Numbered from the stretch's first letter, positions 1,128 through 50,902 are shown. The stretch is DNA of 64,000 nucleotides from an uncultured Chloroflexia bacterium (GCA_963727315.1 CAVSFE010000002.1:407723-471722); one strand, 5' to 3'. The notes: generated by a model from the letters alone, not told the origin. Made by a program: numbers and translations.

Positions 1128-1646
1128 TTATCCTCTGCTTTTCAAGTATGCAATTTCTTTGGGTTTATAGCCAAGTTTTAGTAAGATTTCCTCGGTGTGC
1201 TGGCCCAACAAAGGCGAAGGGCCCTGAGGCCTGCCCGGGGTCTTCTTGAGCTTGACAGGTAGGCCGAGCATTTTTATCTCGCCGCGGGTGGGGTGGTCAA
1301 CGGCAAAGATAATGTCGTTGGCGGCAAGCTGGGGATGGGCAATAACCTCATCGTAGGTAAGGCAGGGGTCGCAGCGCATCTTAGCATCGCGGAAAAGCTG
1401 CGCCCACTCGGCGCGGGTCTTCTGGCTAAAAGCCTCGTCCAAAAGCCGACCGATTTCTTCGCGGTGCTCGCGCCGGGCATCGTCGGTAGCGAAGCGGGGG
1501 TCGTCGGCCAAATTTTCCACCCCTACTATCTTACAAAAATCAGGCCACATGGGACCGGTGCCGAAGATGGTCAGGACATCCCCGTCCCTGGCGCGGAAAG
1601 GCCCGAAAGGCGGCGGCTGATAGCTCCGGCCCTCTTTATAGGGCAT
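1128..1646 (-). CDS. family III CoA-transferase (CaiB/BaiF), C-terminal fragment; same gene as 1571..2332, broken by a frameshift near 1647
   Basis: ...DDPRFATDDARREHREEIGRLLDEAF...PLLGQHTEEIL is a typical family-III C-terminus. Adding one G between GCAGG and ATGCCC joins ...FAEYLMPVAG to MPYKEGRSY. Confidence 0.8.
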   Translation of the reverse strand: MPYKEGRSYQPPPFGPFRARDGDVLTIFGTGPMWPDFCKIVGVENLADDPRFATDDARREHREEIGRLLDEAFSQKTRAEWAQLFRDAKMRCDPCLTYDEVIAHPQLAANDIIFAVDHPTRGEIKMLGLPVKLKKTPGRPQGPSPLLGQHTEEILLKLGYKPKEIAYLKSRG

Positions 1647-2332
1647 CCTGCCACCGGCATGAGATACTCGGCGAAACCGGAGAACTGCAGATAAAGCGCC
1701 GCATCCAGGTTATTCACCGTCAAAGCCTGTCCCAGGCCATGGCGCTCCCGTACGAAAAGGGCCGTCATCACGGCATAAGCCACCAGCATCCCGCCGACAT
1801 GGTCGCAGGCGGGGAAAGGAAGCATCTGAGGGACGCCACCGGGGTAGCCCATAACGCTCACGATACCGGACATCGCCTGACTCCACATATCGCCGCCGGC
1901 GCGATGAGCGACGGGACCGGTCTCTCCATAGCCATAGAAAGAGCAATAAATCACCTTCGGGTTGATTTTCGAGATTGCTTCATAGCCAATACCTAATCTC
2001 TCCGCCACGCCGGGCCGAAAGCTCTGCAAAACGACGTCGGCGTCTTTAGCCAATTTAAGGACGATTTCCAGACCCTCCGGCGACCGGATATCGATAGCGA
2101 GGTCTTTCTTGCCGCGATTAAAAGCCATCCAGTCGGCTTTGTCCGCAGCACCAGTGGTATCCGTATCCAGCACGTCATCCATGCCGGCGGGGAGCCCAAG
2201 GCGCGTGGCCTCGCCCTGTACTCTCTCCACTTTAATGACCTCGGCGCCCATATCCGCCAGCATGGCGCCGCCGAACGGGGCGGCGACGGCGATACTGAAA
2301 TCAAGGACTTTAATGCCTTCCAGAGGATACAT
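1571..2332 (-). CDS. family III CoA-transferase, N-terminal fragment (frameshifted; the last ~25 codons are out of frame)
   Basis: MYPLEGIKVLDFSIAVAAPFGGAMLADMGAEVIKVE is the canonical family-III N-terminal motif. Confidence 0.8.
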   Translation of the reverse strand: MYPLEGIKVLDFSIAVAAPFGGAMLADMGAEVIKVERVQGEATRLGLPAGMDDVLDTDTTGAADKADWMAFNRGKKDLAIDIRSPEGLEIVLKLAKDADVVLQSFRPGVAERLGIGYEAISKINPKVIYCSFYGYGETGPVAHRAGGDMWSQAMSGIVSVMGYPGGVPQMLPFPACDHVGGMLVAYAVMTALFVRERHGLGQALTVNNLDAALYLQFSGFAEYLMPVAGCPIKRAGAISRRLSGLSAPGTGMS

Positions 2333-2348
2333 ATTTTACCTCCGCCAG

Positions 2349-4536: not shown

Positions 4537-4926
4537 CTATATTATCCCGTCTTTTTTCAACGCCCGCAGGTCTTTTTTTGTAAGTCCTATCTCTTTATAG
4601 ACCTCAGCGTTGTGCTCACCGATTAACGGAGCGCGGCAGTGCGTGGAGAAATCCATTAATGATGAACGGATGTATTCTCTCGGGTAGGTAATGCTCGCGC
4701 CCAGCTCCGGGTGCTCAATTTGCGCCCAGTAACCGCGGACATGAAGGCACTCATCGTCGAGGAGGTCCTGCATGCGGGAAAGGGGGCCGATAGAGACACC
4801 GCGCGGCACGGCGCCTTGAAGCAGCTCCTGGCGCGTGTGGCGCAGGAAGAACTCCCCCACCGGACCGGATATTTTATCCACCACTTCCTGATCGACCGTG
4901 AACATATCAAAGCCGTCCCAGTCCAT
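4537..4926 (-). CDS. family III CoA-transferase, C-terminal fragment; same gene as 4907..5770, with a frameshift near 4951
   Basis: ...APLIGEHNAEVYKEIGL at the C-terminus. Removing one A in GAGAAGAAG-A-CTGGCT gives the continuous ...WMDEKKLATDFLLDMDWDGF... Confidence 0.8.
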   Translation of the reverse strand: MDWDGFDMFTVDQEVVDKISGPVGEFFLRHTRQELLQGAVPRGVSIGPLSRMQDLLDDECLHVRGYWAQIEHPELGASITYPREYIRSSLMDFSTHCRAPLIGEHNAEVYKEIGLTKKDLRALKKDGII

Positions 4927-5770
4927 GTCCAGAAGGAAATCGGTAGCCAGTCTTCTTCTCGTCCATCCAGGCCACCAGAGAGCTTAAAGTCTTGGCGCCG
5001 GTGCGGCCGCCGATGATATTGAAAAACACATAGCCGTCCTTACAGCGCCACACCTGCCGCTGCGCCACCTGGGTGCTCATGCCGGCGCGGAAAGCCCCGG
5101 CTCGCTTTAAAATCGTCCCGTCAAGCTCGTAGGTAGGCACGGCATTGGCCTGAAACCAGGCGGCGGACTGCTGCATCGAGACATCGACGCGCTGGCCCTG
5201 CCCGGTCTGCTCTCGATGATAATAGGCCACCATACAGCCCACGGCAGCATCAGCGCCGGCGTGCAGGTAGGCCTGGGGGACACTAATACGGACGGGGGGG
5301 CCATCGGCCTCGCCGGTCTGATAGAGAGTGCCGCTCATGCCCATGACAACGATATCCGAGCCCTTATAGTCGCGGTAGGGCCCTCCAAGGCCGAAGGGCG
5401 TAATAGAAGCCCAGATGAGCTTTTTGTATATTTTTTGGAAGTGCGAATAACCCATATCAAGTTTATCCAGATAGTCGGGGGGAAAGGACTCAAGAACGAA
5501 GTCGGCGGTAGAGACCAGTTTTTTGAAAAGCCCTCGTCCTTCGGGTTTTTCGATATCGAGGGTAATGCCTTTTTTATTAGAGTTATAGGCGAACCAGTAA
5601 ATATTTTCCTCGGGGTCGGGGGCACCGCTCCAGAACGGGCCAATAGAGCGAGAGGGGTCGCCGCCGGGCTTTTCGATTTTAATAACCTTAACACCGAGGT
5701 CGGCCAGGATTTTCCCGCAGAGAAACCCCTTGGCGTCGGTAAGGTCTAAAGCTCGCAGGTGATTAAGCAT
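4907..5770 (-). CDS. family III CoA-transferase, N-terminal fragment (frameshifted)
   Basis: MLNHLRALDLTDAKGFLCGKILADLGVKVIKIEKPGGDP is a family-III N-terminal motif. Confidence 0.8.
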   Translation of the reverse strand: MLNHLRALDLTDAKGFLCGKILADLGVKVIKIEKPGGDPSRSIGPFWSGAPDPEENIYWFAYNSNKKGITLDIEKPEGRGLFKKLVSTADFVLESFPPDYLDKLDMGYSHFQKIYKKLIWASITPFGLGGPYRDYKGSDIVVMGMSGTLYQTGEADGPPVRISVPQAYLHAGADAAVGCMVAYYHREQTGQGQRVDVSMQQSAAWFQANAVPTYELDGTILKRAGAFRAGMSTQVAQRQVWRCKDGYVFFNIIGGRTGAKTLSSLVAWMDEKKTGYRFPSGHGLGRL

Positions 5771-9099: not shown

Positions 9100-9103
9100 C
9101 ACT

Positions 9104-9973
9104 TTACTCCTGCGGGGCGGATAAAAAAGTGGCAGCTTGAGATAAAATCGGCTGGCCGCCGGCGACGTAAATGACCTGCCCGGTAACATAGTCGGACATA
9201 CTCGAGGCTAAAAATAAAGCCGGCCCGGCGATATCATCCGGTTTTCCCATCCGCCCCAGCGGCACCTCTTTCTTGCAAAGCGCCGCGAAAAAGGCGTCCC
9301 GCTCCGGTCCCGGCGGCTGCAACGAATCCCAGAACGGCGTCTCGATAGGGCCCGGCACGATGGCATTCACGTAGATATTAAACGGCGCCAATTCGAAAGC
9401 CAGGTTCGTGGTCAGGCCTAGGACGCCGGCCTTGGCGGAATGATAGTGAAGCACGGAAACGGCCGGATGCACGGCGCCCATCGAAGAAAGGTTAATGATT
9501 TTCCCGTACCGTTGTTTTTTCATATGGGGAATAGCGGCAATACAACAGAGGAACGGGCCCTTCAAATTTACATCCAGTATTCGGTCCCAGTCCGCCTCGG
9601 TGGCGGTGGCGCTATCGCCGCCCTTGACGCCGACGCCCCCGGCGTTATTCACCAGGATATCGATTTTCCCGAACTTCTTGATGGTCCGGGACACCATGGC
9701 GTTGACCTCGGCTCTCTTAGAGATATCGGCTTTAATCGCCAGGGACTTACGACCCAGAGCTTTAATTTCGTCGGCTACCTTTTCAGCGCCCTCGATATGC
9801 AGGGCATTCACGACAACGTCGCAGCCTTCCGCGGCGAACTTCAAAGCGATAGCACGCCCCATGCCCTTGGCGCCCCCGGTAACGATAGCCACCCTGTTTT
9901 CCAGCAACACTTCCGGCCTCCTTGAGTCGATCCTTAATTTATGATGATTAACAGTTATGCCCTCAATTGACAT
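9104..9973 (-). CDS. SDR family oxidoreductase
   Basis: TGGAKGMGRA (TGxxxGxG), NNAG and YHSAK (YxxxK) are present. Confidence 0.85.
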   Translation of the reverse strand: MSIEGITVNHHKLRIDSRRPEVLLENRVAIVTGGAKGMGRAIALKFAAEGCDVVVNALHIEGAEKVADEIKALGRKSLAIKADISKRAEVNAMVSRTIKKFGKIDILVNNAGGVGVKGGDSATATEADWDRILDVNLKGPFLCCIAAIPHMKKQRYGKIINLSSMGAVHPAVSVLHYHSAKAGVLGLTTNLAFELAPFNIYVNAIVPGPIETPFWDSLQPPGPERDAFFAALCKKEVPLGRMGKPDDIAGPALFLASSMSDYVTGQVIYVAGGQPILSQAATFLSAPQE

Positions 9974-11607: not shown

Positions 11608-12383
11608 AACATATTCGATTGTTTGACTTAATTGCTTGATTAACGTTATTGCCTTTTGTAAATCAACGGTAGTAGACTTAAAGCCTGATTCCTGCCATTC
11701 GTTAGATGTAAAATTCTTTAAATCAGATAGTTTATCGCTAGGTACACCCGCATATTCAGGAGTAACTGTGTAGAAAAAAGACTAATAGATAATGTTTCCT
11801 CTAAATCAAGCAGGATTGATATTTAGTCAGGGCTTAATCTTGGATGAAAGGCATCAAAAAAAACTAAAATACCATTATGAGCATTGGTAATCTGCGTAGC
11901 GAGGGACTTCCATCCTTTAGTGTCTAGGTTTCGCACACGCTGGGGAATCATCGGAGAGATAACATTTTCAGATACGATAATCATCTCTTTATGAACATCA
12001 TTTAAATTCGCAGAATTGGATATACGTTCTTGGAGAACATTAAAACTTATACCCAGTCCATTCCGAATACTGGTTATTATAGAATTCAGTAATATCTCCA
12101 GACGATTTGAAATTCTATAATCAGTTGATTTCCATTTTTGCTCCTCATGCCACTTAAGAATCCAAGCGACATAGGAGACCGTAACAACTATACCTAATAT
12201 TTCGGTTGAAAGGTTTTACTTCTATCTTAATTCCGATAATACGAGTGAAATTTTAGGATGACTTAGAGAATAACCCAAACTGGAAATACTAGTTGTGGAA
12301 ATAAAGTGTTGGCATATAAACATCCAGAACCTGATAGAACGGTATGAACTTGAGAACTTCAATCCAGATGTTCAAATATATAA

Positions 12384-15053: not shown

Positions 15054-15103
15054 TTTTCCCTCCGTACCAGCCAGCTTTTTCAGGGCCTTAACACTTCCGG
15101 TCT

Positions 15104-16474: not shown

Positions 16475-16479
16475 CCGGT

Positions 16480-28324: not shown

Positions 28325-28475
28325 TTTTCTCCTCAGGTAAATCTTAGCTAATCGGCGTCAGCAAAGCCCGGCTCTTGACGATTACCTGCTCTTTCTTATA
28401 ATTTAACAACTCTATAGCTTCTCTGAGGACACTCAGCGGCACAGATACCGCAGCCTCGACACTTGGCCACTTCTA

Positions 28476-30131
28476 TCACGGCCACGCCATCTTCGTTAAT
28501 ATAGGGTACATCATAGGGGCAGACGCGAACACAGGTAAGACAGGCTTTACACTTTTCCGCATCCACCTGACAGACAGCGCCACCGACCTCCAGCTGTTGT
28601 TTCGACAGGATAGTTGTGGCTCGCCCCGCGGCTGCCTGCGCCTGTGTATGGTCTCATCAATGAACTTCGGGGAATGGGCCGTGCCACACAGGTATATCCC
28701 CTCCGAAGCAAAGTCAACCGGCGCCAGTTTGACATGGGCCTCGTGGAAGAAACCTTCCTCAGTCAGCGGCACCTTCAGGATTTTGCTCAGTTCTTCATTA
28801 CCTTCAGCAGGGACCATGGGCGTTGCCAGGACCAGAAAATCAGGTGATAGGACAAGCTCCTCACCCAAGATCGGGTCGAAGGCTATAACTTCGAGCTTGC
28901 TATCGATGGCGTTAACCTTGGGTAATTTATCATCGGAATAGCGAATGAACACTATGCCTTTTTTGCGCGCTTCGGTGTAGAGTTCCTCTTTGAAGCCATA
29001 GGTCCGGACGTCTTTGTAGAGTATATAGATATTTGCCTGCGGACTCATTTCTTTTATCTTCAGGGCATTCTTAATGGCAACGGTACAACAAACCCGACTG
29101 CAATACTGGTAATTCTTGCCGGGAGGCCGGGCACATAGAATCATAGCTATATCTTTAGCCGATGCTATTTCTTGGGGAGACGCCACGATTTTCTCTTCAA
29201 GGTCGCTCAAAGTAAGCACCTTTTCATTCTGTCCCAGCAGGTACTCGCTACCCCGGTATTCTTTGGCTCCCGAGGCGACAATGATTACTCCGTGCTCGAC
29301 CAACCGCTGTTTCTGTCCGTTTTCACTGGCGAGGGTGGTTTTAAAATTACCGACAAAACCATCTGTCTTGACCACAACTGTATCCATAAGGACTTCAATC
29401 AGCGGATTTGCCTTGACTCGCCTTTTTAAGGACTCCAGGAAATCCTGGGGGCTCTCCCCGTTAAGAGACAGGTGAATCTTCCTTGTCCAGCCGCCCAGCT
29501 CCTTTTCCCTTTCCACCAGGTATGTCTTGAACCCCTGCTCGGCCAGATTGAGAGCGGCCGTCATACCGGCAACACCGCCGCCAATGACCAGAGCATCATG
29601 ACTGAGCCCCAGGGTCACCTTGTGCAGTGGCTCAAGCAGGGCAACACGGGCTACGGCCATCCGAATTAATTCTTTAGCTTTCTCGGTGGCCTTTTTAGGT
29701 TCACGCATATGGACCCACGAGCACTGGTCGCGGATATTAGCCATCTCAAAGAGGAAGCGGTTAAGTCCGGCTTCCTTTATGGTCTCCTGGAACAGGGGTT
29801 CATGAGTTCGAGGGGTGCAGGAGGCAACCACCACCCGATTAAGGTTATATTCCTTTATCTTTTCCTTTATCTTCTCCTGGGTATCCTGGGAGCAGGTATA
29901 GAGGTTTCTATCAACAAAGACTACATTTGGCAGTGTCGCGGCATAATCCTTTACCTCCGGGACATTGACGTAACCACCGATATTGATGCCGCAATGGCAA
30001 ACGAAGACGCCAATTCTCGGCGGCTCCTTAGAGACATCTTTTTCCGGGGGATATTCCTTCTCTACCGTCAGAGTGTGGCGTGACGAGGCAAGTAAAGCTG
30101 AAGAATTGGCGGCGGCGGCGCTGGCCTGCAT
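28476..30131 (-). CDS. HdrA-like flavoprotein, C-terminal third of a single large gene (true extent about 28396..32812, with frameshifts near 28645 and 30258)
   Basis: GVFVCHCGINIGGYV...ASCTPRTHE...ALVIGGGVAGMTAALNLAEQG... The last ~55 codons of the track ORF are out of frame. The shifted frame reads QAQAAAGRATTILSKQQLEVGGAVCQVDAEKCKACLTCVRVCPYDVPYINEDGVAVIEVAKCRGCGICAAECPQ, with a stop at 28396-28398. Confidence 0.8.
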   Translation of the reverse strand: MQASAAAANSSALLASSRHTLTVEKEYPPEKDVSKEPPRIGVFVCHCGINIGGYVNVPEVKDYAATLPNVVFVDRNLYTCSQDTQEKIKEKIKEYNLNRVVVASCTPRTHEPLFQETIKEAGLNRFLFEMANIRDQCSWVHMREPKKATEKAKELIRMAVARVALLEPLHKVTLGLSHDALVIGGGVAGMTAALNLAEQGFKTYLVEREKELGGWTRKIHLSLNGESPQDFLESLKRRVKANPLIEVLMDTVVVKTDGFVGNFKTTLASENGQKQRLVEHGVIIVASGAKEYRGSEYLLGQNEKVLTLSDLEEKIVASPQEIASAKDIAMILCARPPGKNYQYCSRVCCTVAIKNALKIKEMSPQANIYILYKDVRTYGFKEELYTEARKKGIVFIRYSDDKLPKVNAIDSKLEVIAFDPILGEELVLSPDFLVLATPMVPAEGNEELSKILKVPLTEEGFFHEAHVKLAPVDFASEGIYLCGTAHSPKFIDETIHRRRQPRGEPQLSCRNNSWRSVALSVRWMRKSVKPVLPVFASAPMMYPILTKMAWP

Positions 30132-30246
30132 TACCGTCTCAGGGATGTCCTTGGGTGCCTGAAAAACGCCGGTGACGAAGATGCCTGGACTTGATGTCTC
30201 GACCGGTGAAAATTCTCCGGTCTGGCAGAACCGGTATTTATTGAGG

Positions 30247-31470
30247 TCAATGCCCAGTCTCTCTGGCCAGTTTTACGCCTTTCGCGGATGGCTGGAATCC
30301 TACCGAAAGAACTACCAGGTCGAATTCCTCGTTCTTTAACGTTCCATCTTCTTCAGCAAACCTGAGAAGTAGATTCCCGGTGGCTTTGACCTCTTCGATA
30401 TTAAATACCCTTGACCTCACAAAGCGGACTTTATGTTCTTGTTGCGCGCGATGGTAATACTGCTCATATCCCTTCCCGAAGGTCCTCATATCCATGAAAA
30501 AGATGGTTGTGTCAATCTCCCGACCGGCATGTTCTTTAGCAATGATAGCCTGTTTGATGGCATAGGTGCAGCAAACTGATGAGCAGTAGCCGGCATTGAT
30601 ACTCTCATCCCTGGAGCCAACACATTGAATCCAGGCAATCTTTTGGATGGGTTTCCTGTCCAAAGGCCTGATTAACTCACCTTTAAAAGGCCCGGAAGCG
30701 CTCAGCATGCGCTCAAACATGATGCTGGTAACGACATTCGGATATTTGCCATAGCCATAGTTGGTCAAGGCCGAAGGCTCATATTCGTCAAGTCCAGGAG
30801 ATAGGATGATAGAGCCGACGTTAATATCTACGTATTCATCCTGCATCTCATGGTTGATGGCGTCGGCTTCGCATCTTTCCTCACACTCCCGGCACTCAAA
30901 GCAGCCCTCTATCTGCGAGGCTAAGCAGCGTCTTGCCTCTCTCCGGGCCGCGGCTATAGAATAGACCTGCTCCACCTCTTTAAAGCCTTTGATTCGTCTC
31001 TCTGGCTTCAGCTCTTTACCTTTCACCCTGTTCTTCGAAGGGAAGCGCTTTTTAAGGGCAACAATTTCATTTTTACTGAGTTCTTGCGGGGCTCGGGTAT
31101 CATCTTTGGAGGTTAAAGGCTCTCCTTTGAGATATTCATCGATGGAACGCGCCGCTTTCTTCCCGGCGGCGATAGCCTCAATAACCATGGCCGGACCGGT
31201 AACCACGTCTCCGCCGGCAAAAATACCGTTAATATTGGTAGCTAAAGTGGCTTCATTGACGGCGATTGTTCCCCGCGCGGTTACTTTCAAGCCATTTTTC
31301 CTGGCATAATCAATATCTGGAGCTTGACCCAGAGCCGGAATAACGGTATCAACATCGATGAAGAATTCAGAGCCTTCAATCGGGACAGGGCGACGACGAC
31401 CGCTGTCATCAGGCTCCCCGAGATTCATCTTAATACACTCGATCCTGGTGACCCTGCCTCCTCTCGGCAA
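30247..31470 (-). CDS. middle fragment of the same gene: end of the GltD/NfnB-like NAD(P)H module plus the HdrA core
   Basis: GRVTRIECIKMNLGEPDDSGRRRP...FAGGDVVTGPAMVIEAIAAGKKAA (GltD-like), then CFECRECEERC, CVGSRD...YCSSVCC (HdrA-like). The start and end are both created by frame changes. Confidence 0.8.
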   Translation of the reverse strand: MPRGGRVTRIECIKMNLGEPDDSGRRRPVPIEGSEFFIDVDTVIPALGQAPDIDYARKNGLKVTARGTIAVNEATLATNINGIFAGGDVVTGPAMVIEAIAAGKKAARSIDEYLKGEPLTSKDDTRAPQELSKNEIVALKKRFPSKNRVKGKELKPERRIKGFKEVEQVYSIAAARREARRCLASQIEGCFECRECEERCEADAINHEMQDEYVDINVGSIILSPGLDEYEPSALTNYGYGKYPNVVTSIMFERMLSASGPFKGELIRPLDRKPIQKIAWIQCVGSRDESINAGYCSSVCCTYAIKQAIIAKEHAGREIDTTIFFMDMRTFGKGYEQYYHRAQQEHKVRFVRSRVFNIEEVKATGNLLLRFAEEDGTLKNEEFDLVVLSVGFQPSAKGVKLARETGH

Positions 31471-32812
31471 TTACCCGGGTGGGGTTAGCCAGAAACATGA
31501 TATCGATGCCTTCTTCCTCGGCGGCCCTGACCTCCTCATCGCTGGCCGGCATCTCCGAACGGGAACGCCGGTAGATGACTTTCACTTCGGCGCCCAATCT
31601 CCTGGCCACGCGGGCGGCATCCATCGCCGCATTACCGCCGCCAATAACTGCCACCCTTTTACCGACATCGACTTTTTCTCCCGAGTTGACTTTTCGCAGA
31701 AATTCGACGGCATGGACGACGCCGGCAGAATCCTCTCCGGGGATACCCAGCCTCAGACTTTGATGGGCGCCTGAGGCAATGAAAATAGCTTGATAGTCCT
31801 GCCTGAGCTGTTCCAGCGTTATCTCTTTGCCTACTTTAACCTTCGTCTTTATGTTTACCCCTAATTTCTCGATATAGCCTATATCCCTGGCGAGTATGTC
31901 CTTGGGGAGTCTATATGCAGGTATTCCGTATCTGAGCATGCCCCCTGGCTCAGGCAAGGCCTCATAAATGGTCACCTCATAACCTTCGAGGGCCAGATCA
32001 TGCGCTGCCGCCAGACCCGCCGGACCACTCCCGATGATAGCCACCTTCTTACCATTCCTGGTTATCTGAGGGACTTCGTAGTTCTCAATATCAATTTGGT
32101 CGGTAACGAATCTTTTTAAAGCACGAGAAGCAACAGGTTCATCAAGCTGCCCGCGATTGCAGGCTTCTTCACAGGGCGCGTAGCAAACCCGACCGCAGAT
32201 GGCTGGTAGAGGATTGGTACTCCTGATCAAGGCATAGGCTTCTTTGAACATTCCCTCGGCAACCAAAGCCGCGTAACCTTGAACATTCATGTGGATGGGG
32301 CAGGCATCCTTACAAGCGGCATGACAGGGTCTTTCTTCTCTTTTATCGATGGCGTATGTCCTGGGTACTGCTTGAAGATAAGGTGTATAAATGGCTTTCC
32401 TGGTTCCCAGCCCTTCGTCAAAGGCACTCGGCATGATAATAGGGCATCCCTCGGCACATACTCCGCAGCCGGTACATTTAGCACCGTCAACGAATCTGGC
32501 CTTTTTCTTAACAGAAACAGTAAAATTCCCGGGCTTACCCCGGACACCAAGGACTTCTGAATATGTTAGAAGGTCGATGTTAAGATGTCTCCCGCACTCC
32601 ACCAGTTTGGGAGAGAGAATACACATAGAACAATCATTGGTGGGTAGAGTTTTGTCAAGCTGAGCCATCACGCCGCCAATGGCGGGGGAATCCTCTACAA
32701 GGTAGACTTTATACCCGGACTCAGCGAGGTCGAGGGCTGATTGAATCCCGCCGACACCCCCACCAACGACAAGTACCGCCCCTATTTTTTCGCTTGCCAC
32801 CGTCTTGTCCAC
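31430..32812 (-). CDS. N-terminal fragment of the same gene: HdrA N-terminus with an inserted GltD-like Fe-S/FAD/NAD(P) module
   Basis: AVLVVGGGVGGIQSALDLAESGYKVYLVE...LPTNDCSMCIL...CTGCGVCAEGCP (HdrA). Then NPLPAICGRVCYAPCEEAC, VAIIGSGPAGLAAAHDLA and VAVIGGGNAAMDAA (GltD/NfnB-like). Confidence 0.8.
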   Translation of the reverse strand: MDKTVASEKIGAVLVVGGGVGGIQSALDLAESGYKVYLVEDSPAIGGVMAQLDKTLPTNDCSMCILSPKLVECGRHLNIDLLTYSEVLGVRGKPGNFTVSVKKKARFVDGAKCTGCGVCAEGCPIIMPSAFDEGLGTRKAIYTPYLQAVPRTYAIDKREERPCHAACKDACPIHMNVQGYAALVAEGMFKEAYALIRSTNPLPAICGRVCYAPCEEACNRGQLDEPVASRALKRFVTDQIDIENYEVPQITRNGKKVAIIGSGPAGLAAAHDLALEGYEVTIYEALPEPGGMLRYGIPAYRLPKDILARDIGYIEKLGVNIKTKVKVGKEITLEQLRQDYQAIFIASGAHQSLRLGIPGEDSAGVVHAVEFLRKVNSGEKVDVGKRVAVIGGGNAAMDAARVARRLGAEVKVIYRRSRSEMPASDEEVRAAEEEGIDIMFLANPTRVIAERRQGHQDRVY

Positions 32813-39280: not shown

Positions 39281-39466
39281 CCGAAAATCAACCCAACTCT
39301 ATCACGCCAACGTGGATATTCGGGTGCTCAAAGTGCCTGATAAAGTGGAAATTGGTGCCATTTCGGTGGCAAATCGGTACAAAAATGACGAAAAGGAACA
39401 AACGGTGATAAAAGGAAAAATCAGAAATGAAGTCGAGAAACGGCTATATCAGGTAAGCCGATAGAT

Positions 39467-40159: not shown

Positions 40160-40545
40160 GCCCTTACCTCTATCTATTAGTTAAGTCGGGGGGGGATTTA
40201 CCTAAAAGTACATAAAATGAACCTACAGGTACAAAGAGGGGAAAAAGACTTTTATAATACATACGCCGTCATAATAATTTGGCTAAATAGTTAATGTCAA
40301 GTAATTTTTTTAACTTTTCCTCCCAATCTAGTACTTTATGCCTAGTACCGATGGCCATGGCCACACCAATTCTTACAGGATTTTGCCAATTGACATATTT
40401 TTTTCCGATAATATATAATAATGTGTAAAGTTGCCAATTTATGAAGGATTTTTCCTACATACAAATTAAAATACTTATTATATAATTACAAATATTAGTG
40501 ATTTTTTAACATATCGCGGTCGTCGTTCATGATACTATTATACTT

Positions 40546-40920
40546 ATGACCAATAAAGATTCAGCCTTTGTATCCTTCTTAAAGGAAGTCATGCGGCGGC
40601 ACCAGCGCAAGCCCAGTCAGCTGGCGGCCGAACTGGGCATCAGCCATGCCACGGTAAGCCGCTGGCTTTCGGGCAGGGACATACCGAACACCCGTTCCTG
40701 CCAGAGACTGGCCGACTACAGCGGGGTACCGGTCCAGAAGGTCCTGGCGATTGTCGGCCACATTCCCAGAGTAGCCGAGAAACCGGCCGCAGAGTGGCCC
40801 GAGTTCCGAGAGTATGCTCTCAACAAATATCCAGCCGAGCTGGATGAAGACCTGATTACCATGATTGAGGACTTAATCGAACGGCGCAGAGCGAAAAAAT
40901 ATGGAGAGAAAGACTCCTAG
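40546..40920 (+). CDS. XRE-family helix-turn-helix protein
   Basis: KPSQLAAELGISHATVSRWLSGRDIPN is an HTH_3-type motif. Confidence 0.75.
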   Translation: MTNKDSAFVSFLKEVMRRHQRKPSQLAAELGISHATVSRWLSGRDIPNTRSCQRLADYSGVPVQKVLAIVGHIPRVAEKPAAEWPEFREYALNKYPAELDEDLITMIEDLIERRRAKKYGEKDS

Positions 40921-41608
40921 TTGGGAATCTGAACTCTGGTCATATCTTAGTTGCGGAGACGGCACCAACTGCCCGATGTACTCATCCTGCCAGCTCAGGG
41001 GAGGCAACGTCAGGTGTTTCAGCGAAAACCTGGGATATTACAGGCTGGTGAATGAGTTCATTGACGAAGACGGGTTCGAGCTTAGCAATCCGTCAGGTGA
41101 AAAATTCGTATTCTCCACGTGCCCCGGCAGCGGGAGGATTTTCCAACTCGTCAGAAGACTAGCTCAAAGATATATTAACGAGGCGGGGATTAATCAACCG
41201 CCCGTTCCAACCAGCCTCATCACTCGTTCCAACGGCAATATCCCCATCGAAGTACGGAAGGTGCCGCTGAAGGCTTACCGCGGCGCCGTCTGGCGGCTGA
41301 GCAACTGCTGGGTGGTCCAGCTTAACAGCAACGACCCAACAGCCCGACAGAGGTTCACGCTATACCACGAGATTTTCCATATCCTGGCGCACAGCAAAGC
41401 GACTCCCGTGTTCAAAAAGGCAGGCTGCGACCTGGAAGGCTCTTTCAACGAGATGTTGGCCGACCATTTCGCCGCCGCCTGTCTTTTACCCGATAAACTG
41501 CTGAAGAAAATGTGGACCAGGATAAAAGACGTAAACAGGATGGCAACGGTCTTCGACGTTCCCCGGCCGGTAGTGTGGCTATCGCTCAAGATCCTGGGCC
41601 TGACTTAA
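40901..41608 (+). CDS. ImmA/IrrE-family metallopeptidase
   Basis: HEXXH is present as FTLYHEIFHILAH. It overlaps the XRE gene by 20 nt, which is the typical XRE-ImmA pairing. Confidence 0.7.
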   Translation: MERKTPSWESELWSYLSCGDGTNCPMYSSCQLRGGNVRCFSENLGYYRLVNEFIDEDGFELSNPSGEKFVFSTCPGSGRIFQLVRRLAQRYINEAGINQPPVPTSLITRSNGNIPIEVRKVPLKAYRGAVWRLSNCWVVQLNSNDPTARQRFTLYHEIFHILAHSKATPVFKKAGCDLEGSFNEMLADHFAAACLLPDKLLKKMWTRIKDVNRMATVFDVPRPVVWLSLKILGLT

Positions 41609-42572: not shown

Positions 42573-43004
42573 CTAAATATTGCGGGCGGTCTCCATCCCA
42601 TGGCTGATGGCATCGGCAATCAGGAGCGGCTCTTTACAATCGCCGATAGCGAAGAGTTCAGGCACCTTGCCCTTCAGGCCTTCGAACAACGTCGGGTCGG
42701 GAAGCAAAGGAAGGGCGGGGATAATGGTATCGGCGGGAATGGTCTGCTTTTTACCGTCTTTATCAATTATCGTCAGCCCTTTATCAGTTATTGCCACATA
42801 CTCTTTAACGCCGGCGATGAGGGTCACGCCTTTTTTCCGGAACCAGTCGAAAAGATAAGCCTGGATAACGTCGACCATCCCCTGCCCGAGGGTCGGGGAC
42901 TTCTCCACGATAGTGACCCGCCGGCCACGCTTGACGAGGAACTCGCCGAGCTCACAACCGTGCAGGCTGCCCCCGATAATGATGACTCTTTTGCCAATTG
43001 GCAA
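42573..43004 (-). CDS. FadH-like (2,4-dienoyl-CoA reductase / OYE-fused) flavoenzyme, C-terminal fragment; same gene as 43016..44659, with a frameshift near 43080
   Basis: GKRVIIIGGSLHGCELGEFL...AIGDC... is the second nucleotide-binding domain. The shifted frame upstream reads LSIVRLKFYLRFIGPKTLRWLTRFYLPIGKRV and joins directly. Confidence 0.75.
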   Translation of the reverse strand: MPIGKRVIIIGGSLHGCELGEFLVKRGRRVTIVEKSPTLGQGMVDVIQAYLFDWFRKKGVTLIAGVKEYVAITDKGLTIIDKDGKKQTIPADTIIPALPLLPDPTLFEGLKGKVPELFAIGDCKEPLLIADAISHGMETARNI

Positions 43005-43015
43005 ATAAAATCTGG

Positions 43016-44659
43016 TCAGCCACCGCAGGGTTTTCGGGCCGATAAAACGCAGATAAAATTTGAGCCTGACGATGGAGAGTCGGCGCTGCTGACGACATTA
43101 GCCCGGTTTATCCCGGGGATATCGGGAACTGCAGGCTTACCACCACCGGCGATAATAACCGCATCCGGCCTGATTTTCCCGATAACTTCCGGAGTTATAG
43201 ATTTGCCGAGGACTATTTTTACACCGAGCTTCTTAAGCTGGCGCTTAAAATATTTAATCATGGCAGGCAGGTCTTCAAGCTCGGTGCCTTTTACCAAGGC
43301 GGCGATGGGCAGCAGCCCGCCGAGCTTAGTTAGCCGGTCATATAGCGTCACGTCATGGCCGCGCAAGGCAGCTACCCTGGCCGCCTCAAGACCGGCCGGA
43401 CCCGCCCCGACCACCACCACCTTTTTCTTTTTCTCCGCTTTTTCAACGATATTGTAGTCTTTACCCATAAAGGCGTTAATGCGGCACCGCCGGCTCCCCA
43501 GGCAGTTCTCGCAGGCGGTGCAGGGCGCGATGTCATCCAGCCTCCCGGCGATTATTTTAGCGGGCAGGTCGGGGTCGGCCTGAAGGCGCCGCGTCATGGC
43601 GATAAAATCGGCTTTGCCCTCACGAAGGACTTTCTCGCCCAACCGCGGGTCGAGCTTGCCGACCACCATGACGGGGATAGTCACCTCCCGTTTTATCCCC
43701 GCCGCCAGATTAACGTTCCAGGCGGCACCGCGCCCAAGGGCGTTGTATTCTTTCGGAAAGCTCTTCAACGGTATAACCGGCTCCGGATAAAAAAGGAGGT
43801 CGGGGAGATAAGCGCCGACGTGATATCCGAGCCAGTGGCTCCTCACGTGGATGGCATCGGCGCCGGCGGCCTGCAGCAAACGGGCGGTGTTTTTAGCATC
43901 CTCGACCGTCAAGCACTGCTCATCGGCGATACCGACGATACGCCCGATTTCAACGCCATTAATGCAGACGGAGACGGGAAAGTCCCCGCCAAGGCGGTTC
44001 TTGATTTCCCGCACAATAGAGGTCACGAAACGCGCCCGGTTTTCCACCGACCCGCCGTAGATGTCCTGCCGGCGGTTCCAGAAAGGCGACAGGAAGTTGT
44101 GCAGCAGGTGGCTGCTGGCGGCATTAACGTCCACGCCGTCGAAGCCGGCCTTCCGGGCCCGCACCGCGGCGCCGGCGAACTTATCAATAATTGCCTCGAT
44201 TTCCGGAATCGTAAGCACGTGGGGCATTTCGTTATGAAAATCGTTTTCCGATTTCATCGTGACCGGCGAGGCGGCGATGGGCTGACCTTCGAAAAAGGGC
44301 GTGATGCCCAGCAACGCCCTCTGCCAGGGGCCGTCGTGGTTCATCTGCATAAACGTGGGGCAGCCGTACCTATGGATGACCTCGACCAGCTCGCTGAGAC
44401 CTTTGATGAACCTGTCGTCGTCGATACGGTAGCGCTGCTGCCAGCGCGCGCCCAGAGGGTAGTCGATGGTGGGCGACTCGACAATCAGGAGCCCGACGCC
44501 GCCCCGCGCCAGCGACTCGTAGTAAGCCAAGATAGCGGCGTTCATACGGGTCTCGTCCTGATGCCACATGAAAGTCCCGGCACCGGTCTTGACGATGCGA
44601 TTCCTGGTCTTTACCGACCCGATGCGGCCGGGCTCTAAAAGCTTATCGAATTTGCCCAT
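43016..44659 (-). CDS. FadH-like NADH:flavin oxidoreductase (OYE TIM barrel + Fe-S + FAD/NAD domains), N-terminal fragment
   Basis: The OYE-like N-terminus is ...IVKTGAGTFMWH..., ...HDGPW... The Cys cluster is CTACENCLGSRRC. VVVVGAGPAGLEAARVAALRGH is also present. The last ~25 codons are out of frame. Confidence 0.75.
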   Translation of the reverse strand: MGKFDKLLEPGRIGSVKTRNRIVKTGAGTFMWHQDETRMNAAILAYYESLARGGVGLLIVESPTIDYPLGARWQQRYRIDDDRFIKGLSELVEVIHRYGCPTFMQMNHDGPWQRALLGITPFFEGQPIAASPVTMKSENDFHNEMPHVLTIPEIEAIIDKFAGAAVRARKAGFDGVDVNAASSHLLHNFLSPFWNRRQDIYGGSVENRARFVTSIVREIKNRLGGDFPVSVCINGVEIGRIVGIADEQCLTVEDAKNTARLLQAAGADAIHVRSHWLGYHVGAYLPDLLFYPEPVIPLKSFPKEYNALGRGAAWNVNLAAGIKREVTIPVMVVGKLDPRLGEKVLREGKADFIAMTRRLQADPDLPAKIIAGRLDDIAPCTACENCLGSRRCRINAFMGKDYNIVEKAEKKKKVVVVGAGPAGLEAARVAALRGHDVTLYDRLTKLGGLLPIAALVKGTELEDLPAMIKYFKRQLKKLGVKIVLGKSITPEVIGKIRPDAVIIAGGGKPAVPDIPGINRANVVSSADSPSSGSNFICVLSARKPCGG

Positions 44660-46431: not shown

Positions 46432-47055
46432 TTAACCCGGAACACTGATAATGCCGATAAGATTTAATCCCCGAATAACCATGCTGACGGCGATAGCGGC
46501 CAGCAGCAGGCTGAAGACGCGGGAGGTCGCCCGGATGCCGCCCTCCCCCATAAAAGCGGCAATCCTCTGGCTCAAGAGGAAGAAAATCCAGGTAATCACC
46601 ATATTCACCGCAAAAGAAACCAGGACGATGTAAATCTTATACTGGAGCGACAGGAGAAGCAGGGTGGTGATGGTGGCGGGGCCGACCGTCAGCGGCGTCC
46701 CGATAGGGACCACCGCTACCATCTCCTCTTTAATCATGGTGACCATATGGCCGGTGGTCATGTACGAAATCGAAAGCACCAGCAGGATAATCCCGCCGGC
46801 GATGGCGAAAGACCCGACGGAAATATTCATGACATCCAAGATAAACCGCCCGAAGAAAAGGAAGACCAAACCGACGATAGTGGCGGTAATGACGGCAAGG
46901 TGGACCATCCGGAGCCGCTCCGGTCTCGTCTTATTTTCGCCCATGGTGATGACAAAGGGCAGGTTGCCAAAGGCATCGATAACGATGAACAGGGGCACGA
47001 AGGTCATCACGAAATCTTGCCAGGACACCTTAAAGCATCCCTCCCGGGCAGACAA
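46432..47055 (-). CDS. MarC family (UPF0056) membrane protein
   Basis: ...FVPLFIVIDAFGNLPFVI..., about 6 TM helices, ~200 aa. Confidence 0.7.
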   Translation of the reverse strand: MSAREGCFKVSWQDFVMTFVPLFIVIDAFGNLPFVITMGENKTRPERLRMVHLAVITATIVGLVFLFFGRFILDVMNISVGSFAIAGGIILLVLSISYMTTGHMVTMIKEEMVAVVPIGTPLTVGPATITTLLLLSLQYKIYIVLVSFAVNMVITWIFFLLSQRIAAFMGEGGIRATSRVFSLLLAAIAVSMVIRGLNLIGIISVPG

Positions 47056-47069
47056 TCGGACTATCTATA

Positions 47070-47543
47070 TTATAGCTTTTTTCTAAGGACAAGTTTATCG
47101 TCGCCGGGCGTGTAAAAATCGGGGATGCAGGCCACGGTCTCGTAGCCGCGGCGCTCGTAGAATTGGCGGGTATTTTCGTAGAGCGGCGTCGAGGACGTCT
47201 CGATAATAGCCAGTCTGCCCCCGGCCTTCTTAATCGCCGTTTCCGCCGCTTCCGAAAGCATTTTCCCGATACCATGCCCGCGCTTCGCCCGGTCGACCGC
47301 CACCCAGTAGATATCCCAGGTGCCCACGGTGCAGGGCGTCTCGCCGTAGCAAATATACCCCGCGATTTTGCCGTCTTCCTCGGCGATAAGGGTGAAATAA
47401 CCGGCCCGGGGGTCGTTAAGATAGCTGTCAATGACCTCCTCCGCCACCACTACCTCGAAAGATTTAAATTCGGGCGTATTGCGGAGTATTCGTATCAGCG
47501 CCGATTTGTCCCCGGCGACCATGGGGCGGATCCTGACGGTCAT
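47070..47543 (-). CDS. GNAT family N-acetyltransferase
   Basis: MTVRIRPMVAGD...WVAVDRAKRGHGIGKMLSEAAE (R/Q-x-x-G-x-G/A acetyl-CoA motif). Confidence 0.8.
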   Translation of the reverse strand: MTVRIRPMVAGDKSALIRILRNTPEFKSFEVVVAEEVIDSYLNDPRAGYFTLIAEEDGKIAGYICYGETPCTVGTWDIYWVAVDRAKRGHGIGKMLSEAAETAIKKAGGRLAIIETSSTPLYENTRQFYERRGYETVACIPDFYTPGDDKLVLRKKL

Positions 47544-48543
47544 AGTCTTTTTTCTCCAGAGCCAGTTTCACAATTTTATCAACAAACTGCGTATAATTCA
47601 TGCCGACCGCCAGGGCCTGCCGGGCCGCGCCGGTGCCCGGCGAGATATCCGGGTTAGGGTTGACTTCCATGACGTTGAGCTTCCCCGCTTCGTCCAGGCG
47701 CATATCCACCCGCGCGTACCCGCGGCAACCCAACAACTTATAAGCCGCCAGGGCCGTCCCGGCAACATAGTCCCGCTCCTCAGGTTCTATCTCCGCCGGG
47801 CAAACGACCTTGGTCCCTTTAAAATAAACGCTGTCCTCCTCCCACTTGGCCTCGAAGCTCAGGATGCGGGGCACCCCCGGCGACAGCGAATAGACAATCT
47901 CGGAAACGGGCAACACGACACACTCCGAGTTGCCCATGACCGTGGCGTTAAACTCGCGCCCACCGACGAAACGCTCGACCAAGGCGGCGCTGCCGTAACA
48001 TTCCGCGATGACTTTGACCTGCCTCGCCAGCGACGGAAAATCGTTGACCACGCTGTCCGCGGTGATACCGTGGCTGGCGTCCTCGGCGCGGGGCTTGACG
48101 ATACAGGGATAATCGAGGTGGAACGTGGACAGCGTCTCCGGGTTGAGCAACTGAAAGTCCGCCGTGGGAATGCCGGCGGCCTGAAGCAGCACCTTGACCT
48201 TGGCTTTATCCAGGGCCAGCCGGAGCACCGCGGCCTCGCAGCCGGTGAAAGGCAGCCCCAGCTCCGCCAGTGTTTCCGGCACCAGGGCTTCCGTCTCCGG
48301 CTCGCCGCAAAAACCCTCGAAAAGATTGAAGACCAACAGTACTTCCAGCGATGCCAGCTTCTGACGGGCCGTCTTAAAGGGCGGCACCAGCGGCAGGAGG
48401 ACTACCTCATGTCCCAACTCGACTATCGAGGCGCGCACCGCTTCCACCGCTTCAAGGACGCCGATAACCGCCTTCTGTTCATGGGTACGGTCATAGCGCG
48501 ACGGGTTCGGCTCGTTATAGACGACGGCTACACGCGCACACAT
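47464..48543 (-). CDS. D-Ala-D-Ala-ligase-like ATP-grasp enzyme (the 3' tail is probably out of frame)
   Basis: VAVVYNEP...CIVKPRAEDASHGI...VMEVNPNPDISPG. The last ~27 codons overlap the GNAT gene by 80 nt. One extra A in the A6 run (T6 at 47548-47553 on +) would end the protein at ...LALEKKRL with a TGA overlapping the GNAT ATG. Confidence 0.75.
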   Translation of the reverse strand: MCARVAVVYNEPNPSRYDRTHEQKAVIGVLEAVEAVRASIVELGHEVVLLPLVPPFKTARQKLASLEVLLVFNLFEGFCGEPETEALVPETLAELGLPFTGCEAAVLRLALDKAKVKVLLQAAGIPTADFQLLNPETLSTFHLDYPCIVKPRAEDASHGITADSVVNDFPSLARQVKVIAECYGSAALVERFVGGREFNATVMGNSECVVLPVSEIVYSLSPGVPRILSFEAKWEEDSVYFKGTKVVCPAEIEPEERDYVAGTALAAYKLLGCRGYARVDMRLDEAGKLNVMEVNPNPDISPGTGAARQALAVGMNYTQFVDKIVKLALEKKDYDRQDPPHGRRGQIGADTNTPQYARI

Positions 48544-49529
48544 TGCGGGTACCTCTCTGTAGCGGCATCAAGCACACTACCGATTAGTGCCTCATATTTC
48601 CAACCCAGCATCAGCGCCATAATAACGAGGTCGCTGTAGCTCCCGAGTCCGGGGAGGGGGTTGATTTCGATAAAGTACGGTGTGCCGTCACGGCTGACAC
48701 GGAAGTCGATGCGGGAGAAGTCGCGGCAGCCGAGCGTTTTAAAGGCGGCAACGGAGAAACGCTGCATTTTATCAAGCGTTTCTTCGGGCAGCCGGGCGGG
48801 ACACTCATAGTCCACAAGATTGACGTAGTCGCGCTTCACTTCCAGCGAATAGACGAAATGCGCGACGGGCTTTTTGGGCACGACGCGCATCATGCCCACT
48901 ATCTGCGGCGGCGAGTTGCCGACCATGCCCACAGTCACCTCATCGCCGTCGATAAACTCCTCCACCATGACCGGCTGGCGATAGCTGTCCAGAATTCTCC
49001 GGACTTCCGCTTCCGCCCGGGGGACGTTATGCGCCAGTGAGGTCAGGCGGATGCCCTTACTCGAGCCTTCGGAGGCCGGCTTAATGATGACGGGGAATTT
49101 TATCTTTTCCCAGGGCGCCCGGCGCAGCTCCTCCCCGCCGCCAATCACCAGCCAGCCGGGGGTGCTGATACCCTCCGCCGCCACCAGCTTTTTCGTCAGC
49201 GGTTTATCGAGGCACACCGCCAGGCAAAGCGGGTCGGAGCCGGTATAGGGAATATCCAGCATCTCCAGGACGGCCGGCACCTGGGCTTCGCGACTGCGGT
49301 ATGTCCCGCGGCCTTCGGCGACGTTAAAAACGATATCAACGCTCTCGCGGCGGATGTTATCGAGGAAGCGCGTACCGCCGCCCAGCCTGATGACCTCGTG
49401 CCCCCTCGATTCGAGGGCCGCCGATATCATCGCCACCGTTTCCGGAGAATCGTATTCTTCCAGCGCGTCCTCGACGGAGAGATGCCCTTCTACGGCCTCT
49501 TTAAGGTCATACGATAACCCGATCCGCAT
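48528..49529 (-). CDS. D-Ala-D-Ala-ligase-like ATP-grasp enzyme
   Basis: MRIGLSYDLK...VIIKPASEGSSKGI...FIEINPLPGL. Confidence 0.8.
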   Translation of the reverse strand: MRIGLSYDLKEAVEGHLSVEDALEEYDSPETVAMISAALESRGHEVIRLGGGTRFLDNIRRESVDIVFNVAEGRGTYRSREAQVPAVLEMLDIPYTGSDPLCLAVCLDKPLTKKLVAAEGISTPGWLVIGGGEELRRAPWEKIKFPVIIKPASEGSSKGIRLTSLAHNVPRAEAEVRRILDSYRQPVMVEEFIDGDEVTVGMVGNSPPQIVGMMRVVPKKPVAHFVYSLEVKRDYVNLVDYECPARLPEETLDKMQRFSVAAFKTLGCRDFSRIDFRVSRDGTPYFIEINPLPGLGSYSDLVIMALMLGWKYEALIGSVLDAATERYPQCVRV

Positions 49530-50757
49530 CTACTTCTCCTTCGACTTTCACCGGCAGGTCGGCGTCCGCCAACAGACTATCGACGATGCCACTCACCGGC
49601 GCCCCGACAGCATCGGGGTGAGTCGGCGAATTCGGATTACGATAACGGAAGACCTTGCCTTCATAGTTTTTCAATAACAACTCGTCCCTGGTCATTGACA
49701 GCACGTAGTTAGGCTGCAGAGGCACCTTGCCGCCGCCGTTGACCAGGTCCACGACGAAACTGGGCACGGCCAGGCCACTGGTATGCCCGCGCATCCCTTC
49801 GATGATTTTAATGCCAACCTCAACCGGGGTGCGCAGATGCTCCGTCCCCTGCACCTCGTCGCACTGGAAGAGGTAGTAGGGACGTACTTTAATTTTAAGC
49901 AGTCCCTGGCAGAGCTTCAGCTGGGTCGAAACGCTATCGTTGATGCCCCTCAACAAAACAGTCTGGTTATTGACCGGCACGCCGGCGCGCAGCAGGCGGT
50001 CGCAGGCGGCCGCCGACTCCGGCGTTATCTCGCGGGGGTGGTTGAAGTGGGTGTTCAACCATATCGGGCCGTGCCTCGACAGCATGTCGCAGAGCTCGGC
50101 GTCAATACGCTGCGGCAGCACCACGGGGAAGCGGGTACCGATACGGATGATTTCGATATGCTTGATTTCCCGTATTTTAGAGATAATCATCTCCAGGTGG
50201 CCCGTCGAAAGCGTCAGCGGGTCGCCGCCGGAGATGATGACATCCCTGACTTTCGTATTGCGGCGCAGGTAGTCCAGCATGGCTTCTATCTCGTTCCAGG
50301 GACGCACCCAGCCGCCATGCCGCCATTCCCTCTTGCGCGTGCAGTGACGGCAGAGCATGGGACAGATATCGGTAAGCACCATCAATACGCGGTCGGGATA
50401 GCGGTGCACCAGGCCGGGAACCACCGAGTCCTCTTTTTCCGCCAACGGGTCTTCCAGACCGATATCGCTCATGGAAATCTCAAGAATAGAAGGGACCGCC
50501 TGTTTCCTCACCGGGTCATTGGGGTCGTGCGGGGTTAACGAGCGACAGGTAGTAAGGAGTGATGGCAAGGGGATAACGCTGGCAAACCAGAGCGATTTGC
50601 TCTTTTTCCTCGATGGATAGCGGGACCAGCCGGCTGAGCTGGTCAACCGAGGTGATGCGGTTACGGAAGTGCCACTTCCAGTCATTCCAGGAACTATCGG
50701 GAACGTTCCCGAACAGTCTATATCTACCGGCAAGGCTTTTACCGGGGGGCTCGTCAT
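49507..50757 (-). CDS. KamA-family radical-SAM 2,3-aminomutase, main fragment; same gene as 50516..50902, with a frameshift near 50530
   Basis: HDPNDPVRKQAVP...GLVHRYPDRVLMVLTDICPMLCRHCTRK (CxxxCxxC)...ISGGDPL. The first ~75 codons of the track ORF are out of frame. Confidence 0.8.
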   Translation of the reverse strand: MTSPPVKALPVDIDCSGTFPIVPGMTGSGTSVTASPRLTSSAGWSRYPSRKKSKSLWFASVIPLPSLLTTCRSLTPHDPNDPVRKQAVPSILEISMSDIGLEDPLAEKEDSVVPGLVHRYPDRVLMVLTDICPMLCRHCTRKREWRHGGWVRPWNEIEAMLDYLRRNTKVRDVIISGGDPLTLSTGHLEMIISKIREIKHIEIIRIGTRFPVVLPQRIDAELCDMLSRHGPIWLNTHFNHPREITPESAAACDRLLRAGVPVNNQTVLLRGINDSVSTQLKLCQGLLKIKVRPYYLFQCDEVQGTEHLRTPVEVGIKIIEGMRGHTSGLAVPSFVVDLVNGGGKVPLQPNYVLSMTRDELLLKNYEGKVFRYRNPNSPTHPDAVGAPVSGIVDSLLADADLPVKVEGEVDADRVIV

Positions 50758-50902
50758 CGATTTTTTTGGTGATCAGGGTTCTACTGGGAGGTTCTTCAAC
50801 TTCGCTTCGAGATAAGGTTTCCGTTGTCATTCTGGTAGTACCGGGGGTGGTGCGGGTTTTACTGGCCACCGATGACGTTTTCACTTTTCTTTTTTTTAAC
50901 AC
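50516..50902 (-). CDS. KamA-family aminomutase, N-terminal fragment
   Basis: ...SSWNDWKWHFRNRITSVDQLSRLVPLSIEEKEQIALVCQRYPLAITPYYLSLVNP is the typical KamA N-terminus. Removing the G at 50530 gives ...LVNPHDPNDPVRKQ... Confidence 0.75.
   Translation of the reverse strand: MLKKRKVKTSSVASKTRTTPGTTRMTTETLSRSEVEEPPSRTLITKKIDDEPPGKSLAGRYRLFGNVPDSSWNDWKWHFRNRITSVDQLSRLVPLSIEEKEQIALVCQRYPLAITPYYLSLVNPARPQ

Follow-up and report, generated by a model that had tools for sequence, protein, structure and literature searches.

Frame breaks in the window

We examined a 64,000-nucleotide (nt) stretch of the genome of an uncultured Chloroflexia bacterium (GCA_963727315.1, CAVSFE010000002.1:407723-471722), hereafter the window, in which conserved metabolic genes are interrupted by small insertions and deletions (indels). 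Five genes are affected, all on the minus strand: two family III CoA-transferase genes, an HdrA/GltD-like fusion gene, a gene for an old-yellow-enzyme or 2,4-dienoyl-CoA-reductase-like protein, and a gene for a KamA-family radical SAM aminomutase. An initial annotation of the window had listed eight broken genes and, while asking whether they reflected assembly indels or genuine decay, leaned towards very recent events or a sequencing artefact. Our results support the artefact side of the question, and we put the probability that the frame breaks are single-base errors in the assembly consensus rather than changes in the organism itself at roughly 0.9.

Alignment with orthologous DNA (77-92% nucleotide identity, 3 to ~25 relatives per site, short-read assemblies included) placed ten indel loci, or 11 bases, in these five genes, namely seven +1 insertions, one +2 insertion and two -1 deletions. 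Eight of the ten loci fall in genes that are broken more than once (four, two and two per gene). Of the eight coordinates first listed, seven have a frame switch at or close to them in three-frame views and open reading frame (ORF) translations; these seven are true breaks, but three of them share the HdrA/GltD-like gene, so that the genes involved number five and not eight. The list had also overlooked two breaks, a -1 deletion at 1151 and a +1 insertion at 28425. The affected genes and loci are given below, with the relatives compared at each locus in brackets.

1108..2332, minus strand: family III CoA-transferase with two indels (Pfam CoA_transf_3 1-213 / 212-366)
1660..1661, minus strand: +2 insertion (8 relatives)
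1151..1151, minus strand: -1 deletion (6 relatives)
4537..5770, minus strand: second family III CoA-transferase with one indel (Pfam CoA_transf_3 4-248 / 279-366)
4950..4950, minus strand: +1 insertion (6 relatives)
28339..32812, minus strand: HdrA/GltD-like fusion (NAD(P)-binding polyferredoxin) with four indels (1488-aa homologs)
31462..31462, minus strand: +1 insertion (4 relatives: L002, L003, L153, L158)
30266..30266, minus strand: +1 insertion (4 relatives: L002, L003, L153, L158)
28647..28647, minus strand: -1 deletion (3 relatives: L002, L003, L158)
28425..28425, minus strand: +1 insertion (4 sequences: L001, L002, L003, L158)
42573..44659, minus strand: old-yellow-enzyme / 2,4-dienoyl-CoA-reductase-like gene with two insertions 11 nt apart (Pfam Oxidored_FMN, and Pyr_redox_2 1-122 / 143-287)
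43080..43080, minus strand: +1 insertion (~25 relatives)
43069..43069, minus strand: +1 insertion (~25 relatives)
47464..47553, minus strand: natural 3' end of an ATP-grasp gene with an A6 run at 47548-47553, no break (overlaps the start of a GNAT gene)
49507..50902, minus strand: KamA-family radical SAM aminomutase with one indel (Pfam Radical_SAM and LAM_C)
50528..50528, minus strand: +1 insertion (4 relatives)

The census comprised all gaps of a length not divisible by three in pairwise alignments with relatives, and covered ~39 kb of the window (1-11, 23.5-33.5 and 41.6-59.6 kb, where relatives at >=78% identity were found). The HdrA/GltD-like locus was compared with L002, L003 and L158 over its whole length and with L153 over the upstream portion that ends at window position 29314; the region from the KamA-like gene to the reductase-like gene with L004, L005 and L010; the CoA-transferase genes with L006-L009; the reductase-like gene additionally with 80 JGI loci; and the surroundings of the glutamate mutase genes with 62 GTDB loci. 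Beyond the ten loci, no frame-breaking coding gap backed by at least two relatives was found in these ~39 kb. The other coding gaps backed by relatives are multiples of three, and the single-base differences that are left over are intergenic. None of the ten breaks is present in any relative compared at its site. The stretches without close relatives (12-23, 34-41.6 and 60-64 kb) were checked through Pfam domain completeness alone, which revealed nothing abnormal.

Minimal repair restores ortholog-length proteins

The organism most likely encodes full-length HdrA-like (1488 aa), CoA-transferase (407 and 410 aa), reductase-like (694 aa) and KamA-like (453 aa) proteins. Minimal repair yields products equal or close in length to their orthologs (1488 against 1488, 410 against 410, 407 against 408-412, 694 against 696, and 453 against 453 aa), with no internal stop in any of them. 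In line with the first description of the halves as family-like, the Pfam coordinates of CoA_transf_3 and Pyr_redox_2 in stop-to-stop fragments continue across the breaks.

The HdrA/GltD-like gene runs from 32812 to 28339 and contains the sites first placed at 28645, 30258 and 31462. Four single-base edits turn it into a clean ORF; eleven homologs have exactly the same length and align without gaps at 88-92% identity, the best matches covering 98-100%, and in DNA alignments with L002, L003, L153 and L158 the four indels are the sole coding gaps. At 31462, where an extra A had correctly been reported, the window reads GCCGA[G][A]GGAGG against GAG in the relatives, and the Pyr_redox_2 match runs on across the site (1-214 / 224-291). 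The extra base seen at 30258 exists, but is better placed at 30266, where the window reads CTGGC[C][A]GAGAGA and the relatives have GCA (L002, L003, L153) or GCC (L158). The nucleotide described as missing at 28645 is indeed absent: at 28647, the window has ACCATA-CACAG where relatives have ATA GCT or ATC GCT, and the frame downstream encodes the conserved QAQAAAGRATTIL. Finally, the window reads CCT[C][A]GAGAAG at 28425, where L158 has CGA and L002 and L003 have AGA.

One of the best 1488-aa homologs comes from a metagenome-assembled genome (MAG) named Dehalococcoidales bacterium; by these matches, the window organism is a Dehalococcoidales-like member of the Chloroflexota. The HdrA-like gene stands upstream of MvhD/FlpD, MetV-like and FlpD genes. 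In L002 and L003, genes for the small and large subunits of a NiFe hydrogenase lie between the second FlpD gene and a histidine kinase gene (16027-18440 in L002); these are missing from the window at 26780-26790, leaving the Hdr-like/MvhD/MetV/MetF cluster with no adjacent hydrogenase.

The repaired first CoA-transferase is 89.5% identical to its homolog P0152. Its upstream break, previously read as one G missing at 1647, is a +2 insertion at 1661, according to eight relatives: the window has GAGTATCTC[AT]GCCGG (CTC-AT-GCC), whereas homologs encode EYL followed by (A/S/T)GG, with GCC, TCC or ACC as the first of these codons (junctions FAEYLAGGRMPYKEG; protein pattern FAEYL(A/S)GG(R/G)MPYKEG). 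The deletion at 1151 removes the third position of an Ala codon (ATTGC-ATA) and swaps the conserved C-terminus KEIAxLEKQ(G/R)II(K/R)TxKK for YLKSRG and a stop; the alternative frame past it encodes ILEKQRIIRTLKK and a stop, in agreement with the C-termini of homologs. The second CoA-transferase, once repaired, aligns over residues 1-410 with zero gaps to many 410-aa homologs, the best at 92.4% identity. Its extra A, reported at 4951, was confirmed by six relatives as a +1 insertion at 4950, where the window reads AAG[A][C]TGGCT and relatives have ATG or CTG; it is the sole gap in 2127 nt of alignment with L009 (92.5% identity).

In the reductase-like gene, the break noted at 43080 is real, although it consists of two +1 insertions and not of one missing nucleotide. 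The window reads GCCGA[C][T]CTC at 43080, where ~25 relatives have GAC or GAT, and CATCG[T][C]AGG at 43069, where they have CGT or CGC; the combined context is GAC[T]CTCCATCGT[C]AGG. Removing both insertions gives ADLHRRLKFYLRF, identical to the homolog consensus, and the 696-aa ortholog used for the length comparison is that of L004. The KamA-like gene likewise contains an extra base, which proved to be GC[A][C] at 50528 and not a G at 50530: the window reads CCCGC[A][C]GACCCC, and the codon varies among the four relatives, which have GCC, TCC or AAC. Counted from the start equivalent to that of P0121, the repaired protein shares 95.7% identity with this 453-aa homolog, with zero gaps.

The eighth listed site, the A6 run at 47548-47553, is no break. 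The Dala_Dala_lig_C (1-203/204) and GNAT domains are each complete, and the 359-aa ATP-grasp ORF ending in YARI and a stop is kept together with its GNAT overlap, without a gap, in L004 and L005. The A6 run is the same in L005, whereas L004 has GAGGAAAG and no run; moreover, the exact ATP-grasp product has a 359-aa cluster mate from JGI/ENA. The surrounding minus-strand cluster at 46432-50902, which comprises the KamA-like gene, two D-Ala-D-Ala-ligase-like ATP-grasp genes, a GNAT acetyltransferase gene and MarC, has conserved counterparts in both L004 and L005. There is an overlap of 59-80 nt between its second ATP-grasp gene and the GNAT gene, and a 786-aa KamA/ATP-grasp fusion protein occurs elsewhere (P0204).

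A near-identical short-read contig and the absence of decay

The neighbouring MvhD/FlpD protein (140 aa), looked up by exact match, led to a 1268-nt Logan contig (L001) from the short-read run ERR10755944. Over window positions 28537-27269, it is 99.76% identical to the window, with two substitutions (the one in MvhD being silent) and exactly one indel. L001 lacks the extra base at 28425 (CCTCGAGAAG against CCTCAGAGAAG in the window) and reads CRGCGICAAECPREAIELLNYKKEQVIVKSRALLTPIS and a stop, with an intact CxxCxxCxxxCP(R)EAI ferredoxin motif and a normal C-terminus; the window product instead ends in AECPQRSYRVVKL and a stop (CPQRSYRVVKL and a stop). Reproduction of a break in independent reads had been named as a check by the initial annotation; carried out at 28425, it did not reproduce the break. 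For the other nine sites, exact look-ups, homolog searches and cluster look-ups found no near-identical contig. Specifically, exact look-ups of the neighbouring 232-aa ATP-grasp_5 and 102-aa MarR proteins gave no further near-identical contig, homolog searches with the junction segments gave nothing above 95% identity, and cluster look-ups found the neighbouring proteins on the source contig only. L155 ends 22 nt before the 43069 site.

The dN/dS comparison that had been proposed at the outset was run on the HdrA-like gene against L002, and gave 0.094, 0.091, 0.075, 0.034 and 0.090 in its five successive fragments, with no relaxation in any of them. We also aligned twelve sequences of 1488 aa without gaps and counted private changes at otherwise invariant sites: eight belong to the repaired window protein, two of them stemming from the misplaced repair at 30266, compared with 22-30 for relatives of similar divergence. 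In a collection of 15 billion proteins, the truncated products (253, 287, 547 and 129 aa) are found on one 1,559,876-bp contig only (NCBI, ENA), unlike the intact MvhD, which is also present in Logan. The suggested simultaneous inactivation of several central enzymes is not supported.

How the errors may have arisen

The 1.56-Mb length of the contig suggests a long-read assembly, into whose consensus ten small indels would have been written, splitting five otherwise intact and strongly conserved genes. We propose that the errors arose at positions where co-assembled strains differ: a polisher that keeps the bases of both alleles side by side would create an insertion, and one that keeps neither would create a deletion. 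The expected products would be doublets of C/A, A/C, G/A, C/T or T/C at third or synonymous first codon positions, outside any homopolymer context, because the bases of both alleles are kept at strain-variable positions. With homolog-guided placement, each insertion can be expressed as a pair of alternative bases at a single codon position: [A/C]TG at 4950, [C/A]GA at 28425, GC[C/A] at 30266, GA[G/A] at 31462, GA[C/T] at 43080, CG[T/C] at 43069, GC[A/C] at 50528 and, for the +2 insertion at 1661, CT C/A·T/G CC, or equivalently three alleles A, T and G before CC. At six of the eight loci with insertions, each of the two doublet bases is an allele found among the relatives; at 28425, C is found in the near-identical contig and A in the more distant L002 and L003. 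Both deletions lie at or beside variable positions. No indel lies in a homopolymer run of three or more, and only 30266 (GCC) can be read as C to CC; a change of homopolymer length, the classic Nanopore error, is thus not what was found at the ten sites.

A sibling genome offers a further comparison. L004, also recorded as L143 (CAVUAO010000002.1, contig_13210; MFD04408.bin.1.159), is a MAG of the Microflora Danica catalogue, which was built from Nanopore reads only, with Flye and one round of Medaka and without short-read polishing, and whose authors name microdiversity as a limiting factor (PMC12313526). Relatives with contig names of the contig_N type are likewise Nanopore-only MAGs of this catalogue. 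It has private breaks of the same form at two positions equivalent to the window: TGT[C][A]TG at ~8417 in the ortholog of glutamate mutase E, against ATG or CTG in relatives, and a +2 insertion, AG+CGC, at ~4804 in a CoA-transferase ortholog, where the Arg codons of relatives are AGG, CGC or CGG. At neither position do short-read relatives have private breaks of this kind. The same-form breaks in L143 lend support, by inference, to a consensus error that merges haplotypes.

Several points nevertheless weigh against the consensus-error explanation or its proposed fine mechanism. The alleles of species-level relatives are only a proxy for polymorphism within the sample, and the independent same-strain comparison covers one of the ten sites (28425). 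Random non-homopolymer insertions, when simulated, give a synonymous doublet in 48% of cases, so that six or more of eight has a probability of 0.12. In addition, three of the ten sites lie within 2 nt of GAGA or AGAG, against a background of 5.5% (binomial P ~0.015), which fits a sequence-context error. We therefore regard the both-alleles-kept signature as suggestive, and haplotype merging, given an artefact, as only somewhat favoured as the fine mechanism.

The main competitor is an artefact with no haplotype cause, in which random low-coverage errors, or basecalling errors driven by context or methylation motifs in purine-rich GAGA-like tracts, survived polishing. The GAGA enrichment and the non-significant doublet test both leave room for it, and Nanopore-only assemblies are well documented to contain consensus indels that break up gene calls (PMC9262707). 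Yet seven of the ten sites have no GAGA-like context, no motif common to the ten sites was seen, and both doublet bases are alleles of relatives at six of eight loci, as they are at the two private breaks of L143; we consider this explanation possible but clearly the less probable of the two. The (A/G)AG+A context that three insertions had been said to share is partly a matter of arbitrary indel placement; the modest GAGA/AGAG enrichment survives, while most sites remain unexplained by it.

Genuine gene loss or recoding

Far less probable than any artefact is a genuine and very recent pseudogenisation, in which the HdrA-like/MetFV module, the two CoA-transferases, the reductase and the aminomutase were lost, and the Logan contig would derive from an intact sister strain. 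The deposited sequence does contain the breaks, two single-nucleotide polymorphisms separate L001 from the window, which means that L001 is not strictly the same clone, and statistics of purifying selection are blind to events only generations old. However, the lesions are absent from L001 and from all relatives, 28425 being contradicted by a 99.8%-identical assembly, and no other decay accompanies them: the ten indels come with zero nonsense mutations and no excess of missense changes. Real decay is very unlikely, as it would require one gene to be hit four times independently and another twice within 11 nt, with no other change. Furthermore, no site lies in a slippage-prone run, the fragments are confined to one contig, and the sibling long-read MAG carries private breaks of like form. 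It is marginally less probable still that at least some of the breaks are genuine and that a Dehalococcoidales population very recently inactivated its NAD(P)H-linked HdrA-like/MvhD/MetFV module, the CoA-transferases, the reductase-like and the KamA-like genes; if true, the window would show a free-living anaerobe in the midst of a burst of metabolic gene loss.

Recoding in vivo, whether by programmed ribosomal frameshifting, transcriptional slippage, or read-through of stop or selenocysteine codons, has a negligible probability: selenocysteine occurs in HdrA-family proteins of some anaerobes and one listed site has an A6 run, but the lesions are frame changes and not in-frame TGA codons, the residues concerned are encoded in one unshifted frame in orthologs, neither a slippery heptamer nor a long run is present at any true break, and the A6 site is no break. 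For the HdrA-like gene in particular, read-through of selenocysteine or of an in-frame stop was rejected, as only frame changes were found and the repaired ORF has no internal stop.

Implications

Consensus error being the preferred explanation, the breaks are no real biological feature and their biological interest is low. Their practical consequences are broader. The five enzymes should be treated as intact in metabolic reconstruction, with the repaired genes as its basis, and the deposited record feeds truncated singleton proteins into public protein collections. At ~1 frame-breaking indel per 4 kb of comparable sequence, the 1.56-Mb genome could hold some hundreds of split genes. If haplotype merging were found to hold genome-wide, strain microdiversity and not homopolymers would be a main source of residual error in such MAGs, and the signature of two alleles side by side could be used to detect and correct these errors.

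Other features of the window

Single-base intergenic differences from two or three relatives were seen at 51062 (four T in the window against three in 3/3 relatives), 50936, 25331, 24409 and 1064; they could be real, or else additional consensus errors outside coding sequence. Three overlapping ORF pairs, 9104/7639, 27226/26786 and 42072/41636, were considered as hidden frameshifts and rejected, each ORF containing a complete Pfam domain. An ORF at 62197-63705 on the minus strand with a seeming in-frame stop is spurious and runs opposite an intact plus-strand ligA. Long antisense ORFs are found opposite ligA (62197-63984, minus), the reductase-like gene (43355-44638, plus) and the ATP-grasp gene (47431-48639, plus); the one opposite ligA has no Pfam match, and the plus strand there encodes a complete NAD-dependent DNA ligase running past the window end. 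At 9100-9189, the 5' extension of a 516-aa glutamate (methylaspartate) mutase E ORF overlaps the upstream SDR gene by 86 nt. Most relatives align to this ORF from residue ~30 and its Pfam match starts only at residue ~75; its 5' end is probably over-extended.

The stretches at 12000-23000 and 34000-41600, which have no relatives at >=78% identity, look like strain-specific islands, and the G+C content falls to 43-49% between 12 and 24 kb. Their genes encode an SBP_bac_5 protein, two DUF3224-like proteins, an 876-aa MalT/LuxR-type regulator, a DUF5305 protein, signal-peptidase-like and camelysin-like proteins, and an HTH/M78-peptidase pair.

Comparison with known systems

Programmed frameshift genes, such as prfB (+1), dnaX (-1) and the IS3 transposases, resemble the broken genes in that two overlapping ORFs jointly encode one protein. 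Their shifts are conserved in orthologs and occur at slippery motifs, whereas the orthologs of the window genes are all single-frame and no slippery motif is present.

Reductively decaying genomes, for instance those of Mycobacterium leprae and of recently host-restricted symbionts, accumulate nonsense and missense mutations and deletions under relaxed dN/dS, with lesions that are reproducible across samples. The window shares with them the interruption of several conserved metabolic genes by frameshifts, but differs in its dN/dS of 0.03-0.09, in the lack of internal stops after repair, and in a lesion, at 28425, that is absent from a 99.8%-identical contig.

The closest likeness is to the class of Nanopore consensus indels measured by the IDEEL test and addressed by frameshift-correcting polishers. 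As in that class, single-base indels split conserved genes into neighbouring ORFs whose frames differ, the halves can be joined with no residue lost, and the errors are absent from short-read assemblies. The known errors are dominated by homopolymer length, which describes none of the ten sites and to that extent counts against the assignment; the two-allele look at variable codon positions points to strain microdiversity rather than homopolymer miscalling.

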